The notes: generated by a model not told the origin, from the letters alone. 22,777 nt of DNA from Candidatus Micrarchaeota archaeon (GCA_013331805.1 DUFS01000057.1:4215-26991); one strand, 5' to 3'. Counted from the first letter of the stretch, positions 4,955 to 12,718 are shown. Numbers and translations are program-made.

Positions 4955-6190
4955 TCACTCCAGCTTCTTTTTGGTTATCGCCTGGTGCAGTATGACGTGC
5001 GTCTTCCTTTCGACGTTCTCGTGGACAACAACGCCGGCGTCCACCCAGCAGCCGTCCCCGATTATCTTGCCCGGCATTACTGAGGAGAGCACGCCCATTT
5101 TCACTCCGTCGCCTATTATCGCGCCGAGCTTGTTCCTTTTGGTGTCTATGGTGACGTCGTTCACAACCGCATGGATGTTTCCCGCGTCAAAGCGGTAGTT
5201 CGCTATCTGCGTGGCAGCGCCGAAGTTGCAGCCCGAGCCGATTATGGAGTCGCCGATGTAGGTCAGGTGCTTGGCATTCACGTGGTCGAATATTATGCTG
5301 TTCTTTATGGTGGTCGAGTCGCCTATTCCGCAGTCCTTGCCTATTGAAGTCGTGCCGCGTATGTAGGCGTGCGGGCCAACGTAGCTCCCCTCCCCGATGT
5401 AGACGTTGCCCTCGATGACCGAGTCGTGCATCTCTGCGTCCTTCTCCATGACTATCTTCCCCCGGATCGTGCAGTTTTCCACCCTGTCGCGGTTGTCCGG
5501 AAGCTTGGAGAGCAGAAATTCGTTTGCCGAGAAAAGCTGCCAGGGCATCCCCATGTCCAGCCAGTAGTCGGATATTTCCACCGCGGTAGCGCCCTTGAGA
5601 ACGTCGATTATCTCGTACTCCCCGCGGAGACTTTTTTTGATGTTTTTGATTTTCCGGAAAACAGAAGGCTCGAAAACGTACAATGAGCAGTTGGCAAGGT
5701 TGCTTTTGGGCTTCTGCGCCTTTTCCTCGAAAGCTGAAATCTTCCCTGACTTGACAATCGCAGTGCCGTACTCCCTCGCATCTTCAACCGCATGAAGGGC
5801 GGCTGTCACCTCGCCCTGCGACCGCTCGGCAAGCTTTTTGAGCGCGGATGCCTCTGTGATGATGTCGCCCGCCACGCCGAAGAATGTTTCTGTTGCAAAC
5901 CCCTCGGCATACCCGAAAGCCGCTGCAGTCCCGTACCTCTCCCCCTGGTCGATAAAAGCCAGCTTCATGCCTTCGACCGGGTTTGCCTTGAAGTAGTCTG
6001 TGATCGCCTCTTTCTTGTACTTCACCACAACAGCGGCTTCGTTCACTCCCGCGACTTTCAGGTTCTCAAGAACGAGCCGAAGTATGGGCTTCCCGGCAAG
6101 CTGTATCATGCACTTGGGCCTGGTATAGGTGAGCGGCCGCAGCCTCTTCCCCTCCCCGGCTGCGAGCACAACCGCCTTTCTTATAGCCAT
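4955..6190 (-). CDS. glmU: Bifunctional sugar-1-phosphate nucleotidylyltransferase/acetyltransferase (archaeal GlmU)
   Basis: KAVVLAAGEGKRLRPLTYTRPK; RGEYEI; WLDMGMPWQL; hexapeptide beta-helix with HLTYIGDSIIG and NFGAATQIAN. ATG at 6190. Confidence 0.92.
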   Translation of the reverse strand: MAIRKAVVLAAGEGKRLRPLTYTRPKCMIQLAGKPILRLVLENLKVAGVNEAAVVVKYKKEAITDYFKANPVEGMKLAFIDQGERYGTAAAFGYAEGFATETFFGVAGDIITEASALKKLAERSQGEVTAALHAVEDAREYGTAIVKSGKISAFEEKAQKPKSNLANCSLYVFEPSVFRKIKNIKKSLRGEYEIIDVLKGATAVEISDYWLDMGMPWQLFSANEFLLSKLPDNRDRVENCTIRGKIVMEKDAEMHDSVIEGNVYIGEGSYVGPHAYIRGTTSIGKDCGIGDSTTIKNSIIFDHVNAKHLTYIGDSIIGSGCNFGAATQIANYRFDAGNIHAVVNDVTIDTKRNKLGAIIGDGVKMGVLSSVMPGKIIGDGCWVDAGVVVHENVERKTHVILHQAITKKKLE

Positions 6191-6207
6191 ATTGGAATTA
6201 GAGGGAA

Positions 6208-6651
6208 TTGAGTTTATTAAGTTTGTTTGCGACCGCTTTCCTTGCCTATAATTCACTGCCCGCAATAACAAGCGCTCTGCAGGCAAAAACGCCCGGAGAA
6301 TTGTTCTCTGGGCTGGTTGACGCGCTTTCCACCGCCCTGATAGCCTTCTTAGGCGCCATCCTGGTGATGTGGGTCATGGGATTCTTTTTCTCTGCGCTCT
6401 GGATGTACTACGCGATGGACAGGAACGGCTTTTTCGATTCGCTATCAAAGTCGTTTTCGCTTGTTTCGTCCAACATACTCGAGTTCCTGATAGTGGGCAT
6501 AATTTTCGGGCTGCTCATGCTTGGCGGATGGGCCCTTGCCGTGGCATGCTGCTGCTTTGCCTGGGTAATCTCGCCTGTCCTGGACGTCTTCCTCACTGTC
6601 CTTTACGGGATAACATTGATGAAAATGAAGCTTGCGCTTGAGAAAAAGTAG
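6208..6651 (+). CDS. Multi-pass membrane protein, probably 5'-truncated
   Basis: About 3-4 hydrophobic helices with GFFDSLSKSFSLV linker and CCC motif. The TTG start is only 17 bp from the divergent glmU ATG and the first codons overlap the glmU TATA box. Confidence 0.65.
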   Translation: MSLLSLFATAFLAYNSLPAITSALQAKTPGELFSGLVDALSTALIAFLGAILVMWVMGFFFSALWMYYAMDRNGFFDSLSKSFSLVSSNILEFLIVGIIFGLLMLGGWALAVACCCFAWVISPVLDVFLTVLYGITLMKMKLALEKK

Positions 6652-7428
6652 CTAAGGGCGGGATTTGGGCCTCTTGGCGAGAAGATCGTAGATTCCAAAA
6701 CTGAGCCTTCCCGAATTTTCAAGCTCAGGCACTATTCGTTCAAGAAGCTGCGCCTTGATCTGCAGGTACTTTTCCTTCCCCACTACCCTGTTCCCTATTG
6801 CGTACCGCTTGCTTTTTGTGTTGAAGCAGAACATGCAGCTGTCCAGATTCTCAACGTTGTGGCAGAAATAGCTGTCGTTGCAGTTTTTTGCCCCGTCTAT
6901 CTCAAAGCAGCGCTGCACGTAGTAGGCATTGTATATGTGCATGGAAAAGCTGGAATTTATCACCCTGTGCGCACCGAAAAGCGATTCGGATTCCATTATG
7001 GAAAAAACGTGGCTGCAGTTCTTGGAAGTCCAGGGGTCGAACGACTCGCGCACATTTATGCAGTCCAGTGTGGAAAATGCGTTTTCGACGTCGATATTCT
7101 TGCCTTCAGAGTAGGTGGGCACGAAATATGCGAAATCCTTCAGTCTCGATGCGATGGATGAAATGGATTCGACATCGCTGATTTTTCCTATTGTTTTCCC
7201 TGCAGCAATCGGTGCGTCCTCGTCCGATGCCACTTTTTTTTCAGGCACTTTTGAAAAAAATCCGTAATCCGGCACATAGGCAGTGCCATGCCCAAAGCAG
7301 GAGGGAACGCTTTTCCCCCCAGGCACGCTCTGGGAAAGCCACTTGCAGTATTTTTTCCAGGGTGAAAGCGGCTTTCCGAACAGGAGCTTTGTGACCTGCG
7401 CAAATGCGGTGTCCATTTTATCAGCCAT
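6652..7428 (-). CDS. Cys/Ser-rich repeat protein of unknown function, paralogue 2
   Basis: RCFEIDGAKNCNDSYFCHNVENLDSCMFCFNTKSKRYAIGN...KEKY; 9 Cys. ATG at 7428 overlaps the upstream TGA (TGATG). Confidence 0.85.
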   Translation of the reverse strand: MADKMDTAFAQVTKLLFGKPLSPWKKYCKWLSQSVPGGKSVPSCFGHGTAYVPDYGFFSKVPEKKVASDEDAPIAAGKTIGKISDVESISSIASRLKDFAYFVPTYSEGKNIDVENAFSTLDCINVRESFDPWTSKNCSHVFSIMESESLFGAHRVINSSFSMHIYNAYYVQRCFEIDGAKNCNDSYFCHNVENLDSCMFCFNTKSKRYAIGNRVVGKEKYLQIKAQLLERIVPELENSGRLSFGIYDLLAKRPKSRP

Positions 7429-8168
7429 CAGCATGCACCCTTTTCCAGGAGATCGAATACCGAGGGAAACGACTTCTTGTCTTTCAGAACCTCGGCAATT
7501 TCGGAAGTGAGCTTCCTTTTCAGCTGCAGGTATTTTCCCTTTTCAAGCTCCAGGTTGCCTATCATGTGGCGCTTGGAGCTTTGGTTAAAGGAAAACATCG
7601 CTTCAGTGCAGTTCCTGCAGTTGAAGCAGCAGTAAAGGTCGCTTGAGTGGAAGCAGAGATATGCGTCAAAGCAGCGCTTGGAATAGAAAAAGACCTGCGA
7701 GTGGATGGAGAACCCCACTTCGCCCCCGAGCTGGCATCCGAAAATCCCCTCGCTCTTGCGGACGCCGTTGGAATATGCCACATGCTTGGAGGAAATCACG
7801 TTTTGCGAGGAGAGTATGTCCAGGCTGTCGCTGCACATGTCGCTTTCAAACACATCAATGGAAGTCCCGAGATTCTTGTTCCCGCAATAGGCAAGCTCCT
7901 GCGGAAGAGCGGAAAGAACCGAATCAATGTCCTTTACCTCATTTATGGAAAGCGCAGATTGCCGATCTGAAGCCTCGTTGACTTCGATGAATCTTGCCGA
8001 CGTTGCATAGGGGCGGGAAAGGTACACTTTCTTGCCAGAAAGATGCGAGGCAGCCTGCCTGGGCTGGTCCACCATCTCTTTCAGGTATTGCGCAAAATCC
8101 GATAGCTCGCCTATGGGCTGCCCGAACAGCACCTGGCAGGTTGAGCTGAATGCCTTTTCTATGTCCAT
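7428..8168 (-). CDS. Cys/Ser-rich repeat protein of unknown function, paralogue 1
   Basis: RCFDAYLCFHSSDLYCCFNCRNCTEAMFSFNQSSKRHMIGN...KGKY; 11 Cys. N-terminus (KAFSSTCQVLFGQP) aligns with paralogue 2 (TAFAQVTKLLFGKP). Confidence 0.85.
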   Translation of the reverse strand: MDIEKAFSSTCQVLFGQPIGELSDFAQYLKEMVDQPRQAASHLSGKKVYLSRPYATSARFIEVNEASDRQSALSINEVKDIDSVLSALPQELAYCGNKNLGTSIDVFESDMCSDSLDILSSQNVISSKHVAYSNGVRKSEGIFGCQLGGEVGFSIHSQVFFYSKRCFDAYLCFHSSDLYCCFNCRNCTEAMFSFNQSSKRHMIGNLELEKGKYLQLKRKLTSEIAEVLKDKKSFPSVFDLLEKGAC

Positions 8169-8263
8169 GAGGAAGTGTTTGTTTATAAAGATATATAAGA
8201 ATTTATATTAATATTTTTAATATAACACTAATAATACTAGATAAAATAAGTGAAAGTGAAAAA
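8169..8263. promoter_or_regulatory. Divergent AT-rich promoter region with a candidate operator
   Basis: Most AT-rich stretch of the window; inverted repeat TTATATTAA (8203-8211)-N5-TTAATATAA (8217-8225); minus-strand TTATATAT box at 8191-8198. Confidence 0.7.
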
Positions 8264-9262
8264 ATGCACAAAATCGACAAAACAGACGGGGAGATCCTGT
8301 TCCAGCTGGACCTGGACGCCAGGCAGCCCAATTCCTCAATTGCCGCAAAAGTCAGGGCGAGCAAGGAGGTTGTTGGCTACAGGATAAGGCGCATGGAGGA
8401 GGAGGGGATAATCGAGGGCTATTATGCGCTTGTGGACATGACCCGCTTAGGCTTCCAGAACGCCAGGATATTCATCAAGCTGAAGAACAGCAGCCCTGCC
8501 GAGGAGCGGGAAACCATAGACTATTTCCAGAAAAGCAGCCGGTGCTGGTGGGTGAACAGCATTTCCGGCTCCTTCACAGACATGGGAATAGCATTCTGGG
8601 TAAGGGACCTCAACGATTTCCATTCATTCAAGGAGGAGCTGATGAACAGGTTCGGGGACAGGATCGAATTCTACCGCGAGTCTTACTATTCGAGGATACA
8701 TGTCTGGCGGAGGAATTACCTTTCCTCAGGGAATGAAAAGCCTTGCTACAGCCTCATTCCGGGGAACAGTCTGAAGATAGAATATGACATGCGCGACATC
8801 AGGCTGCTCTCAGCCCTTTCACAGGACGCCAGGCTGCCCATTGTGAAACTTTCGCAAAAAGTCGGGCTGAGCGTGACTGCCACTTCATACAGATTGGCAA
8901 GCCTGAAGAAAAAGGGCATTATACTGGGCTTCAGGCCGAAAATATCCTTCCCGAAAACCGGCCACTATTGGTACAAGGTTGAATTTCGGCTGGGGGACAA
9001 TCGGGTCAAGCAAAAAATGCTTTCGTACTTCGGCTCGCACCCCAACATAGTCTGGGCGTACGAAAGCATTGGCGGCGGGACCGAGCTTGAAATGGAGATG
9101 GAAGTGGAGTCGCACGAGAAGTTCAGGGAAGTGGCAGATGATTTGCGTTCGAAATTCAGCGCTGCGATCCGGACCTACAACTATTACCTTTGGTCAGCAG
9201 AGCACAAGATCGTCTTTTTCCCGCCTAAGGAGTTCTTCGGGCTGAAAAACCTGAAAGGCTAG
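8264..9262 (+). CDS. Lrp/AsnC-family transcriptional regulator with two tandem HTH plus effector modules
   Basis: IDKTDGEILFQLDLDARQPNSSIAAKV...VGYRIRRMEEEGII, and a second copy DMRDIRLLSALSQDARLPIVKLSQKVGLS...YRLASLKKKGII, each followed by a RAM-like alpha/beta domain. Confidence 0.92.
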   Translation: MHKIDKTDGEILFQLDLDARQPNSSIAAKVRASKEVVGYRIRRMEEEGIIEGYYALVDMTRLGFQNARIFIKLKNSSPAEERETIDYFQKSSRCWWVNSISGSFTDMGIAFWVRDLNDFHSFKEELMNRFGDRIEFYRESYYSRIHVWRRNYLSSGNEKPCYSLIPGNSLKIEYDMRDIRLLSALSQDARLPIVKLSQKVGLSVTATSYRLASLKKKGIILGFRPKISFPKTGHYWYKVEFRLGDNRVKQKMLSYFGSHPNIVWAYESIGGGTELEMEMEVESHEKFREVADDLRSKFSAAIRTYNYYLWSAEHKIVFFPPKEFFGLKNLKG

Positions 9263-10645: not shown

Positions 10646-10825
10646 ATGAGCGTAGACAGGATGTCGGTCTCAGGGCCGCAGTCTTCGGCAGGCATACTGG
10701 GGATTTCCTCCAACACCAATCTCGGCGGCTGGAAGTTCAACCCCCGCGGAGTGGTCATCTTCGCAGCGGCATTCATAATACTGGTCAAGATAATCGACGT
10801 GGTAATCAACAGGAGATTGCTCTAA
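10646..10825 (+). CDS. secG: Preprotein translocase subunit Sec61beta/SecG (59 aa; absent from the ORF track)
   Basis: Manual translation: MSVDRMSVSGPQSSAGILGISSNTNLGGWKFNPRGVVIFAAAFIILVKIIDVVINRRLL*. The SSAG[IL] motif, K-x-x-P-x-x-V-V and single C-terminal TM helix match archaeal Sec61beta. It fills the glmM-HD gap exactly. Confidence 0.82.
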   Translation: MSVDRMSVSGPQSSAGILGISSNTNLGGWKFNPRGVVIFAAAFIILVKIIDVVINRRLL

Positions 10826-11931
10826 GAAGAAAGGAGCCTTTTTGCCGCAGCCGAAACCTTTGCCGCATTTTTCCCATCGCACATCACAATGGCTTCCAGC
10901 CTGCTTTTCTCTATCCTCTCAAGCGAGGCCACGATTTCCGACCCATTTGACAAAAGCGACTTCTTCCCCTCGCAGTCCAGCCTGACTTGGGTGGAAAGCG
11001 ACAGGCGCGGGATGTCTATCAGCACAGGGCATCCGCATTTTTCCGACAGGAGTTTTTCCGCTTTCGAGGGCGAAACCTTAAGCGAGGAAAGTGGAAGCGA
11101 GTGGGCCTTTTTGAAAAGGCGCCTTTCCATGAGGCGCCTTGCGAATTCCCTGCCCTTGCTGGAGCGCTGCAACAGCATTAGCATTTCCGCGTCGTTGAGC
11201 TGCAGCGCGTCTTTCGGAGGCAGTGTGCCGTCCCCGATGGCAAGCGAAATCGACTGCTGCAGCATGCGCGAGGCAATGCGCACTGTCTTGTGAAGGTAAA
11301 CCGTGGAGAACATCGTGAACCGGGCGACCAGCAGGCTTTCCGCAGCAGGAAGGCCGCGCTCGGTTGCATATAGCCCCTTGGAGTCCAGGCCGACAGTGGA
11401 GCAGATCCGGTCAGCGTCGATCACCCCGTAAGCCACGCCTGTGTAGTGCGAGTCGCGCAGAAGATAGTCCATCCTGTCAGCCCCTATGTCAGAAGTAATT
11501 ATCTGCCCAAGCGGCGTGCTTGCCAATCGGGCTATTTCTGCAGGCTGGAACTCCGTAGCGAGTATGTCTGCAATGTTTCCCGAAAGGATCATCTTTTCCC
11601 CGATTTTTTCGTGATTCCCCAGGTGCTTTTCCAGGACGGCTTCTGCCTCGTGGGAGAATGCCACGTGCCCGATGTCGTGCAGCAGGGCTGCGGCGCGGAC
11701 TTTCTTTGCCTTGCCCTCGGGAAGGAGCAGCTCATGGCACATCCTGTCCGCAAGGTGAAGCGCGCCTATGGAGTGCTCGAATCGCGTGTGGTTCGCCCCT
11801 GGATAGACCAGGTGCGCCATGGCGAGCTGGCGTATGCCCCGCAGCCGCTGCATCTGCGGCGTGTCAAGCAGCCGCTCCTCAAGGTCGGAAAGCACCACTG
11901 TTCCGTGCAATGGGTCGCGTATCCTTACCAT
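10822..11931 (-). CDS. HD-domain phosphohydrolase (COG1078, SAMHD1/dNTPase-like)
   Basis: IRDPLHG, MQRLRGIRQL, VYPGANHTRFEHSIG, LLHDIGH..FSH, DRMDYLLRD, VYLHKT. ATG at 11931. Confidence 0.93.
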   Translation of the reverse strand: MVRIRDPLHGTVVLSDLEERLLDTPQMQRLRGIRQLAMAHLVYPGANHTRFEHSIGALHLADRMCHELLLPEGKAKKVRAAALLHDIGHVAFSHEAEAVLEKHLGNHEKIGEKMILSGNIADILATEFQPAEIARLASTPLGQIITSDIGADRMDYLLRDSHYTGVAYGVIDADRICSTVGLDSKGLYATERGLPAAESLLVARFTMFSTVYLHKTVRIASRMLQQSISLAIGDGTLPPKDALQLNDAEMLMLLQRSSKGREFARRLMERRLFKKAHSLPLSSLKVSPSKAEKLLSEKCGCPVLIDIPRLSLSTQVRLDCEGKKSLLSNGSEIVASLERIEKSRLEAIVMCDGKNAAKVSAAAKRLLSS

Positions 11932-11935
11932 TTTT

Positions 11936-12718
11936 TCAAGCCTTTGAGAATTTTCCCTTCCTCTTTTCCAGAACCTCGCCCTCCTCCAGCAGGTGCACCA
12001 GTATGGCACGGCAGCCCTCTGACGGGATGCCTGCCTCTTCCGCTATTTCCTCAGGCGTCTTGTCCGACTTGCCAAGGCGGATGAGAACCTCTTTTTCATG
12101 CGACTCGAAGAATCCCTTGGTGACAAAATAGTATTTCCTGTCAAATGCGCGCTGGCCCCGCACCTCGCCTGACTTGACCTTGTCCGAAAAGGCATTCCCG
12201 AAATTGCGCGCCTCGGAGTCGTTTTCCAGCACCATCCAGCCGGTTTTCTCCAGGTGGGCAATCGAATTTTGCGGAAGCTGGGGAACAAGTGCCTGGGAGG
12301 GGGCTGCGGCAGGCTCGCGGACTGCCGCAAACGCCGCCTCTGAAACGTTTAAGACCCCTGTCTTTTCGTACTTGCCGCCGTGGAAGATTTGGACCGCCTC
12401 GTTCTTGAGCAGTGCTTCGAGCGTCTCCTTTTCCTCCTTGGAAAGGGCTTTTCCCACCTCGGCAGGGATGCGCGACTCGAACCTGATGGAAAGGAGCTTT
12501 CTCACCAGCGCCTTTTCCTTTTCGCTTAGGCTTTTTGCAGCAGCCGCCTTTTGCTCCCGGGCAGAGTGCGGATGGACCACAAATCCCTTGACGGTCAATA
12601 AATAGGCGCCGTCCCTGAGGGGGAAAAGCTCCAGTGTCTGCGACTGGAAAATCTCCTGCGGCAGCTGCCCTGAAAGCAGCACCCCATCCTTTGTCCGAGT
12701 CACCCGAAGTTCAGCCAA
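11936..12718 (-). CDS. Hypothetical protein with a C-terminal winged-helix domain
   Basis: TTG at 12718 follows an AGGTGA RBS overlapping the upstream stop. C-terminus KTPEEIAEEAGIPSEGCRAILVHLLEEGEVLEKRKGKF looks like a wHTH. Confidence 0.72.
   Translation of the reverse strand: MAELRVTRTKDGVLLSGQLPQEIFQSQTLELFPLRDGAYLLTVKGFVVHPHSAREQKAAAAKSLSEKEKALVRKLLSIRFESRIPAEVGKALSKEEKETLEALLKNEAVQIFHGGKYEKTGVLNVSEAAFAAVREPAAAPSQALVPQLPQNSIAHLEKTGWMVLENDSEARNFGNAFSDKVKSGEVRGQRAFDRKYYFVTKGFFESHEKEVLIRLGKSDKTPEEIAEEAGIPSEGCRAILVHLLEEGEVLEKRKGKFSKA

Follow-up and report, generated by a model that had tools for sequence, protein, structure and literature searches.

What is encoded by a pair of overlapping genes of Cys/Ser-repeat proteins that face a tandem regulator gene in a small archaeal genome, and do the three genes form a system of their own? 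The question is raised by a 22,777-nucleotide stretch of DNA from Candidatus Micrarchaeota archaeon (GCA_013331805.1 DUFS01000057.1:4215-26991), referred to here as the window, in which positions 6,652 to 9,262 hold two genes, A and B, and a divergent gene, R. A first reading, made from the sequence alone (the sequence-only reading), had taken them for a self-contained, ligand-responsive module in which two paralogues form a 1:1 beta-solenoid with a Cys ladder, perhaps for metal or Fe-S binding or storage, or for sulfur or redox handling. What it had observed at this locus is confirmed by our analysis. The best explanation of the whole, which we regard as probable though far from secure, is that an undescribed double beta-solenoid family, found almost exclusively in Micrarchaeota, has one of its units encoded here in two halves, the N-type half by A and the C-type half by B, with expression set by the divergent R. 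The parts of the locus are the following.

6652-7428, minus strand: gene B, C-type module, 258 amino acids from the ATG at 7428; as called, the open reading frame (ORF) 6652-7434 gives 260 amino acids from the ATG at 7434
7428-8168, minus strand: gene A, N-type module, 246 amino acids, from an ORF call
8169-8263, between the starts of A and R: divergent spacer of 95 bp, AT-rich, with two TATA-like boxes
8264-9262, plus strand: gene R, tandem two-unit Lrp/AsnC-type regulator of 332 amino acids, divergent from A and B

A and B are paralogues that can be aligned end to end, as had been noticed at the outset, with 28% identity over 250 residues (E 1e-28). Profiles built from the relatives of each align over 240 columns with a probability of 100 and an E value of 2.3e-53. 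The motifs AFxxxxxxLFGxP and RCF...FxFN..SKR..IGN, quoted in the sequence-only reading, are visible in the A/B alignments, and B contains the signature of the C modules, RCFE...FCHN.EN...FCFN.KS.RYAIGN. The junction between the two genes, GGGTGCATGCTGATGGCTGA, agrees with the proposed TGATG overlap, because the TGA stop of A overlaps the ATG start that is common to the B orthologues (MADK...); if the alternative in-frame start of B upstream, the ATG at 7434, were used, the overlap would be 7 nt. The Kyte-Doolittle maximum over 19 residues is 0.8 for A and 0.66 for B, as compared with 2.5 in an adjoining, probably membrane-bound ORF of 147 residues. Therefore, by hydropathy alone, a crude measure, neither protein has a transmembrane segment or a signal-like N-terminus, again as first described.

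To what do the two proteins belong? A has 49 relatives of about 248 residues (36-80% identity), which are named only 'hypothetical protein' of Micrarchaeota or Anstonellaceae. A phmmer search of 1.84 billion representatives with B gave 413 matches at E<=0.001; B matches the C-terminal half of its relatives, and most of the 150 listed are 505-560 residues long with two matched stretches. We cut 99 fused relatives, single chains with a usual length of about 525 residues, at the module boundary and compared the halves to A and B. The best match of A was the N half in 99 of the 99 proteins and that of B the C half in 98 of the 99. What is more, all 50 of the full-length N modules in the fetched loci directly precede a C module on the same strand. 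These loci contain 34 fused and about 12 split units, although a few of the latter lie at locus ends and are possibly artefacts. The site of the split corresponds to the linker, which is gap-rich and the most variable stretch of the fused proteins (entropy 3.57, versus about 2.0-2.7 elsewhere). Since A matches the N halves, B matches the C halves and N always precedes C, the A-B pair of the window is a split copy of a two-module protein. The 1:1 body that had been proposed for A and B is strongly implied by this gene fusion, and the two proteins most likely form a body like that of the fused proteins.

In a tree of 50 N modules, the A protein of the window falls within a clade of seven, all of them split (Shimodaira-Hasegawa-like approximate likelihood-ratio test, 100). 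Split and fused states require 8 changes on this tree, at least 4 of which are forced by well-supported branches, indicating that split forms arose more than once. The genome of the window (1,189,147 bp, 91.5% complete) contains 15 N and 16 C modules, including 14 full units that amount to 22,356 nt, or 1.88% of the genome. A-B is thus one of 14 units of a multi-copy family, and the idea of a self-contained system was not sustained. The family is present in 26 of 41 related genomes, with the number of module matches per genome ranging from 0 to 53 within one genus, and in 60 of 301 genomes of a phylum sample, where it is concentrated in one order (f1, 14/22; f8, 33/65; f13, 0/75). When one genome per species was scanned for 185,579 species, 267 stretches were found to encode a relative. 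The best 79 of these 267 loci were analyzed; by their titles, 71 come from Micrarchaeota, Micrarchaeia or Anstonellaceae, 7 from an unspecified archaeon, 1 from an 'ainarchaeum' and none from bacteria. The occurrence in Candidate Phyla Radiation (CPR) bacteria that the sequence-only reading had mentioned was accordingly not seen among these best 79 loci. The single CPR trace is a neighbour by structure only in the ESM Atlas, a 399-residue cluster of Nomuraibacteriota that aligns over 344 residues to a fused paralogue, L043:8662-10227 (template-modelling (TM) score 0.58 for the query and 0.73 for the row). In a related genome of 0.8 Mb, G002 (87% complete), the only two module matches are the A-B orthologue pair adjoining R; since no other copy of the family was seen in it, the split trio can persist alone.

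No Pfam family (E<=0.01) and no NCBIfam model matched A or B, and seven relatives scanned singly against Pfam gave sub-threshold chance matches only. Profile searches of the PDB returned 0 matches at E<=10 for one alignment and 4 at E 0.48-9.7, none of them meaningful, for another, and none of the anti-phage defence families in PADLOC matched A, B or the fused paralogue (0 at E<=0.01). The same three proteins matched phrog_15341, a phage family of unknown function, at E 7e-4 to 8e-3; this candidate was rejected as too weak to use and possibly due to compositional or repeat similarity.

The fold was addressed by modeling. For the fused paralogue from the same genome as the window (G000:C21:22662-24227, identical to L043:8662-10227), a model made with 99 relatives has a predicted local distance difference test score (pLDDT) of 93.7 and a predicted TM score of 0.92. 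Each of its modules begins with two helices and a few strands; then comes a run of 4-residue strands with a spacing of 6 residues, and a long helix forms the C-terminal part. In a 12-residue register, the conserved small residues occupy positions 2, 5, 8 and 11. The structural neighbours of the fused model are beta-solenoids only, and weak (Z<=4.2 with VIA; Foldseek E about 1e-2, TM about 0.1); they comprise autotransporters, YadA/UspA1 heads, antifreeze or ice-binding proteins, LbH transferases and curli. Foldseek found no match for this model at E<=0.001 in the PDB or BFVD, and the head domains (fused residues 1-93 and 263-371) are barely covered by any structural match. The AlphaFold2 model of A alone, calculated with 45 orthologues, shows helices and successive short strands and ends in a long helix; it gave no Foldseek match, and VIA gave YadA alone, with a Z of 2.0. 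The beta-solenoid proposed from the sequence is borne out by the fused model and by its solenoid-only neighbours, and the fused paralogues are predicted to fold into two narrow beta-solenoids. Because only solenoids match, and all of them weakly, the fold class is a thin solenoid without a close solved relative. In each of A and B, a small head of helices and strands would then be followed by a very narrow solenoid and, at the C-terminus, by a long helix, and the two would assemble 1:1 into a two-solenoid body like that of the fused paralogues, as the fusion suggests. The unit would be made from two translationally coupled genes instead of the usual chain of about 525 residues.

Two groups of known proteins come closest. 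The antifreeze and ice-binding beta-helices (TmAFP, 1ezg; CfAFP of spruce budworm, 1m8n; the Lolium perenne protein, 3ult) are likewise very thin; their coils are short, fixed positions of the repeat are occupied by Cys or small residues, and they match weakly in structure (3ult, Z 3.6, 2.5 A over 96 residues; 1m8n, Z 3.8, 4.0 A over 91; 1ezg, Z 3.2, 8.3 A over 81). However, the A-B family has no sequence relation to them (no Pfam match for A and B at E<=0.01, and no model of this kind even at E<=1 for the seven relatives), is cytoplasmic, and has two solenoids per unit, head domains and long C-terminal helices. The Cys residues of TmAFP, from Tenebrio molitor, form disulfides, while those of the family are interchangeable with Ser, Ala or Val and are not fixed disulfide partners. 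The LbH hexapeptide acyltransferases and gamma-carbonic anhydrases (LpxA, LpxD, GlmU) share the 6-residue strand spacing and are the best Foldseek and VIA neighbours; in LpxA (7ojp; Z 4.2, root-mean-square deviation 3.9 over 130 residues) a helical C-terminal part follows the solenoid, as it does here. On the other hand, A, B and the seven relatives show no Hexapep match in Pfam, TM is about 0.1, and no trimer-interface active-site residues were identified.

Gene R can be assigned more directly. It matches HTH_24 (PF13412, E 2e-22) and HTH_AsnC-type (PF13404, E 1.3e-17), each in two stretches and above the curated cut-offs, and both of its halves, residues 3-144 and 164-304, can be aligned along the whole of solved Lrp/AsnC proteins, with the effector domain included (4pcq, R residues 3-132; 7fby, 3-144; 2cfx, 174-304; 1ri7, 164-288). 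The HTH pairs and full-unit alignments bear out the initial description of R as a two-module Lrp/AsnC regulator facing A-B. The Pfam AsnC_trans_reg model had no match in R at E<=0.01, and the curated NCBIfam Lrp-type models all scored far below their cut-offs (59 bits versus 250). An identity as siroheme decarboxylase AhbA/B or NirDL was rejected (AhbA, 21.5 bits against a cut-off of 140; AhbB, 20.6 against 125; NirdL-like_HTH, 20.7 against 27). Like other Lrp/AsnC proteins with a divergent target (E. coli AsnC-asnA, archaeal LrpA, FL11), R combines an AsnC-type winged helix-turn-helix with an effector domain and lies head-to-head with its neighbour at about 100 bp. It differs from the typical members in that a single chain contains two complete Lrp units and in that its class is expanded.

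The linkage of the family to tandem-Lrp genes, also proposed at the outset, is confirmed, although it is partial. All three double-Lrp genes of the genome (on C10, the window, and on C21 and C47) are head-to-head with the start of an N module within 700 bp, as compared with 2 of the 603 other non-family ORFs of at least 250 residues. R is kept in 7 of 8 orthologous A-B loci. A orthologues with 56-67% identity in G002, G003, G008, G014, G015 and G038 are each adjoined by a divergent R orthologue (55-66%), and in a second, partly overlapping sample R is upstream of A for 8 of the 9 closest B orthologues. To sample the regulator class more widely, 89 R matches in 27 of the 41 genomes, up to 13 of them in one genome, were reduced by 9 partial ones and about 5 kb was fetched on each side, some flanks being cut by contig ends. 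Among 78 full-length R genes, an N module is found head-to-head within 700 bp for 19, and a family module is present within 1.5 kb for 25 and within 5 kb for 34; 24 of the 79 family loci have R within 3 kb. These samples come from related genomes, and either R or B was the point from which they were drawn. The distances between regulators follow those between the adjacent N modules (Mantel r 0.89, with 0 of 2000 permutations as high; only 0.27 among deep pairs), which shows that a regulator and its adjacent N module are inherited together.

Seventy-three R genes have an upstream ORF, and 18 of them face a family gene. We scanned 44 of the other 54 ORFs, leaving out the 10 on R's strand. Among the 44 are 5 Asn-synthase-like genes, 2 methyltransferases, one each of an ATP-grasp, a radical SAM and a HerA/TrwB ATPase gene, and several others, while 25 have no Pfam family. 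The spacing to these other genes is the same, at about 100 bp, the regulator gaps being mostly 84-133 bp. Because R-type genes also face other genes, R belongs to a general class of local divergent regulators and is not a dedicated part. The commonest partner of this expanded class is the double-solenoid family. A dedicated regulator subfamily was rejected as well, since the family-adjacent regulators occur in many separate parts of the R tree (17 changes, against a mean of 26.1 after shuffling). Five Asn-synthase-like genes make this the second commonest type of gene facing a tandem-Lrp gene; three have a glutamine amidotransferase domain and two are without it, and at L091 and L098 the gene is followed by N-C family genes on the same strand.

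L091:5034-7283, L093:6106-8364, L098:4308-6575, L068:1992-3332 and L073:6091-7440: Asn-synthase-like genes facing tandem-Lrp genes

The spacer shared by A and R contains, at 8203-8225, a perfect palindrome with 9-nt arms, TTATATTAA-N5-TTAATATAA. When 7 orthologous spacers are aligned, a TATA-like ATATATAAAA, a run of six T (T6) and a block adjoining the start of R prove to be conserved. In 19 paralogous spacers we found two TATA-like boxes, with central motifs that vary from one regulator clade to another; these clade-specific motifs are candidate operators. A scan for sigma-70 promoters and terminators uses a bacterial consensus and is uninformative for an archaeon. In one regulator clade the central motif between the two TATA-like boxes is AAATTGCACAAAA.AGCAA; other clades differ.

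L050:2808-2945, L070:1085-1192, L071:6045-6228 and L074:4905-5050: spacers with the AAATTGCACAAAA.AGCAA motif

R most likely controls A-B from this spacer. It would act on the 95 bp between the two starts and set A-B transcription. The Lrp/AsnC ('feast/famine') regulators respond to small metabolites, and R would be expected to do the same.

Several observations weigh against a double-solenoid unit set by its divergent regulator. No family gene lies in the fetched 5 kb of 44 of the 78 double-Lrp genes, 55 of the 79 family loci have no R within 3 kb, and the non-family genes faced by R-type regulators speak against a dedicated pair. In G030 the A-B pair has no R within 7 kb, and in G002 the gap between A and R has grown to 874 bp with an inserted receiver-domain ORF. 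The AT-rich spacer and its palindrome are present as first described, but the palindrome is not kept in six aligned orthologous spacers and was rejected as a conserved operator. The model of A alone is mediocre (pLDDT 70.3). Finally, the family is absent from G009, a genome of the same genus that is reported to be 100% complete, and is therefore dispensable.

What might the two-solenoid body do? Strong conservation is limited to the cap and the three to four coils that precede it (RCFE, FCHN.EN, FxFN.K and IGN), and column entropy shows far greater variability in the coils with which each solenoid begins. Nearly all of the solenoid residues of the C module that are kept in at least 85% of the proteins lie within 433-478. 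We tentatively propose a non-enzymatic role for the A-B body, as a binding or adaptor module whose end is conserved, whose start is variable and which was ancestrally associated with a HerA-like ATPase, a reading for which the chances are clearly below even. A conserved docking face would be formed by these end coils together with the cap, and the specificity of each paralogue would come from the variable coils at the start. The ancestral arrangement would probably work with a HerA-like ATPase, the trio of the window being a reduced version without it. This docking-face reading is drawn from conservation patterns, which tells against it, as does the possibility that H455, E458 and K470 of the C module mark an active site.

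That possibility leads to a different explanation, in which the unit is an enzyme with a single active site in the C-type module (B), A is a degenerate partner and R senses what the enzyme converts or makes, a common role for regulators encoded beside metabolic genes. FCHN.EN is found in the C module only, the N module being without the His, and H455 is one of only two invariant residues in the 99 fused proteins. E441, N456, E458 and K470 are kept in at least 97% and cluster with it in the last coils of the C module, and B keeps the equivalents H190, N191 and E193. The amide-bond and tailoring enzymes that R-type regulators also face (Asn-synthase-like, ATP-grasp, radical SAM and methyltransferase genes) would suit such a role. 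However, neither sequence nor fold gave a match to an enzyme family, and fourteen diverged paralogues in a 1.2-Mb genome would be unusual for one enzyme. Furthermore, in the 12-residue register the pairs E458/K470, R438/D450 and N456/N468 are each one coil apart, the first two spaced as inter-coil salt bridges and the third as an Asn ladder would be, which points to structural roles. We consider the enzyme unlikely.

The proposed partner of the adaptor comes from the neighbourhood of the other family members. After R, the commonest non-family cluster encodes a DUF87/HerA-like ATPase of about 617 residues, found in 9 of the 79 family loci (the cluster representative was scanned). At L129, L106 and G000:C21, R is followed divergently by the ATPase and N-C genes, or by N-C and then the ATPase. 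The genome of the window has a single such ATPase for its 14 units, directly downstream of an R-linked fused gene, and the window locus itself has none. PADLOC gave weak HerA and mad8 matches for the ATPase. The arrangement recalls the HerA-partner assemblies (HerA-NurA, and the anti-phage Sir2-HerA and DUF4297-HerA) in that a HerA-like ATPase is encoded in one unit with the N-C genes in a subset of loci. It differs from them in that neither a nuclease or Sir2 domain nor any other effector domain is present in the N-C partner, which PADLOC does not match either, and in that there are many partners per ATPase. The ATPase gene G000:C21:24294-26794 (L043:10294-12794) appears as two overlapping ORFs with X residues at the junction, from an N run or a problem of frame in the assembly; the C-terminal part of the protein is a long, highly charged tail rich in Glu and Lys.

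These genes could also mean that the N-C proteins are clients or cargo of a HerA/VirB4/TrwB-like ATPase, that is, an individually regulated, effector-like repertoire destined for a host cell or a cell-cell bridge. The recurrence of the ATPase as a neighbour, the three loci with R, ATPase and N-C in one divergent unit, the tandem arrays that the paralogues form and the spread of copy number within one genus are all in line with this. So are the C-terminal tails, which are mildly basic, with a mean net charge of +1.05 in the last 12 residues versus -0.02 in other 12-residue windows. Against it, this charge bias is weak, the window lacks the ATPase and one ATPase would have to serve 14 units; the annotated loci showed no genes for a membrane channel or a pilus next to the arrays, and to our knowledge no secretion signal has been described for such a system. 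Cargo of this kind seems quite improbable to us. We give an equally low likelihood to the bolder proposal that tandem-Lrp regulators, a phylum-specific HerA/VirB4-like ATPase and N-C solenoids make up an undescribed three-part system of Micrarchaeota. In it, metabolite-sensing regulators would switch on uniform but surface-variable solenoid bodies one at a time, the ATPase would load or move them, for example as effectors or adaptors in the dealings of a symbiont with its host, and the split trio of the window, having no ATPase, would be its most conserved, stand-alone member.

The Cys residues call for a separate explanation, since the sequence-only reading had built its function on them. The run of S/C-x-x units that it described is real: the Cys frequency along the solenoid has an autocorrelation of 0.32-0.58 at lags 3, 6, 9 and 12 and is negative at every other lag up to 12. 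Cys makes up about 4% of the residues (median, fused proteins), and a few columns are fairly well kept (B203, 90%; B176, 79%; A187, 78%). A CxxCxxCC-domain gene, what is more, recurs in 6 surveyed loci, and one such gene faces a double-Lrp gene. These are the grounds on which a Cys ladder could bind metal or Fe-S, or handle sulfur or redox chemistry, in a ligand-responsive storage or handling module. Yet among 100 N and 100 C modules there is not one invariant Cys column. In most columns Cys is kept at 20-60% and is exchanged for Ser, Ala, Thr or Val, residues unable to ligate metal; in the A orthologues, no more than 3 of the 11 Cys are kept at 90%, and the Pfam scans of A, B and the seven relatives gave no CxxC/CxxxC knuckle family. 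The 3-residue period, the exchange with Ser, Ala, Thr and Val and the lack of an invariant column therefore argue for Cys as core packing and not as metal ligands, and the ladder as a metal, Fe-S or sulfur site appears very unlikely. In the double-solenoid family, every third residue of the solenoid would be small (Cys, Ser, Ala, Thr or Val), and the periodic Cys would point inward and fill the core of the narrow solenoid, as judged from the period and not from model coordinates.

Self-assembly of the solenoids end to end into cytoplasmic filaments or scaffolds like those of bactofilins or curli is the least credible explanation: narrow solenoids with exposed ends often polymerise, and the weak structural neighbours include solenoids of CsgA curli and of autotransporters (Z 3.2-4.1), but there is no bactofilin match in Pfam, and end-to-end growth would be blocked because the head domain and long C-terminal helix flanking each solenoid, with the conserved ...IGN of the last coils, read as end caps.

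The family and its gene arrangement are new, while the thin beta-solenoid fold class and the Lrp regulator class are already known. New here are the quantified linkage to the regulator, the conserved group of split orthologues and the arrangement of R, ATPase and N-C genes. Literature searches, with supplements not covered, found no paper on Micrarchaeota solenoid proteins, and the passages on Micrarchaeota and Lrp in PMC5498576 concern a copper island. About 1.9% of a 1.19-Mb symbiont genome is devoted to this one family, which has no curated name and no close solved structure. Lineage-specific expansions in reduced genomes usually mark lineage-defining biology, such as host interaction, defence or nutrient sensing. 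The window offers the simplest handle on the family, with a conserved split pair of about 250 residues each that is easy to express, a dedicated-looking regulator and a control region of 95 bp. In addition, the tandem Lrp regulators constitute an expanded class of local regulators in these archaea.

The genes around the trio are the following.

4955-6286, minus strand: GlmU-like gene (NTP_transferase and LbH), with a Hexapep match at E 9e-11
6208-6651, plus strand: 147-residue ORF, strongly hydrophobic (maximum 2.5), which converges on B and ends at B's stop codon
9259-10593, minus strand: phosphoglucosamine/phosphomannomutase-like gene, flanking the B-A-R trio
10822-12009: HD-domain gene, beyond the mutase-like gene

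Because the GlmU-like and mutase-like genes flank it, the trio lies within a UDP-sugar gene neighbourhood. The ORF at 6208-6651, which has no Pfam or NCBIfam match, is likely a small membrane protein. The flanking genes have the same order in G002 (L048), which we read as inherited synteny. There, the inserted ORF (L048:7357-8154, 265 residues) has a response-regulator receiver domain (E 9.7e-9) and lies directly upstream of A on A's strand. The 20 sequencing runs listed as containing the DNA of the window include no RNA run; all are DNA, from groundwater or soil.

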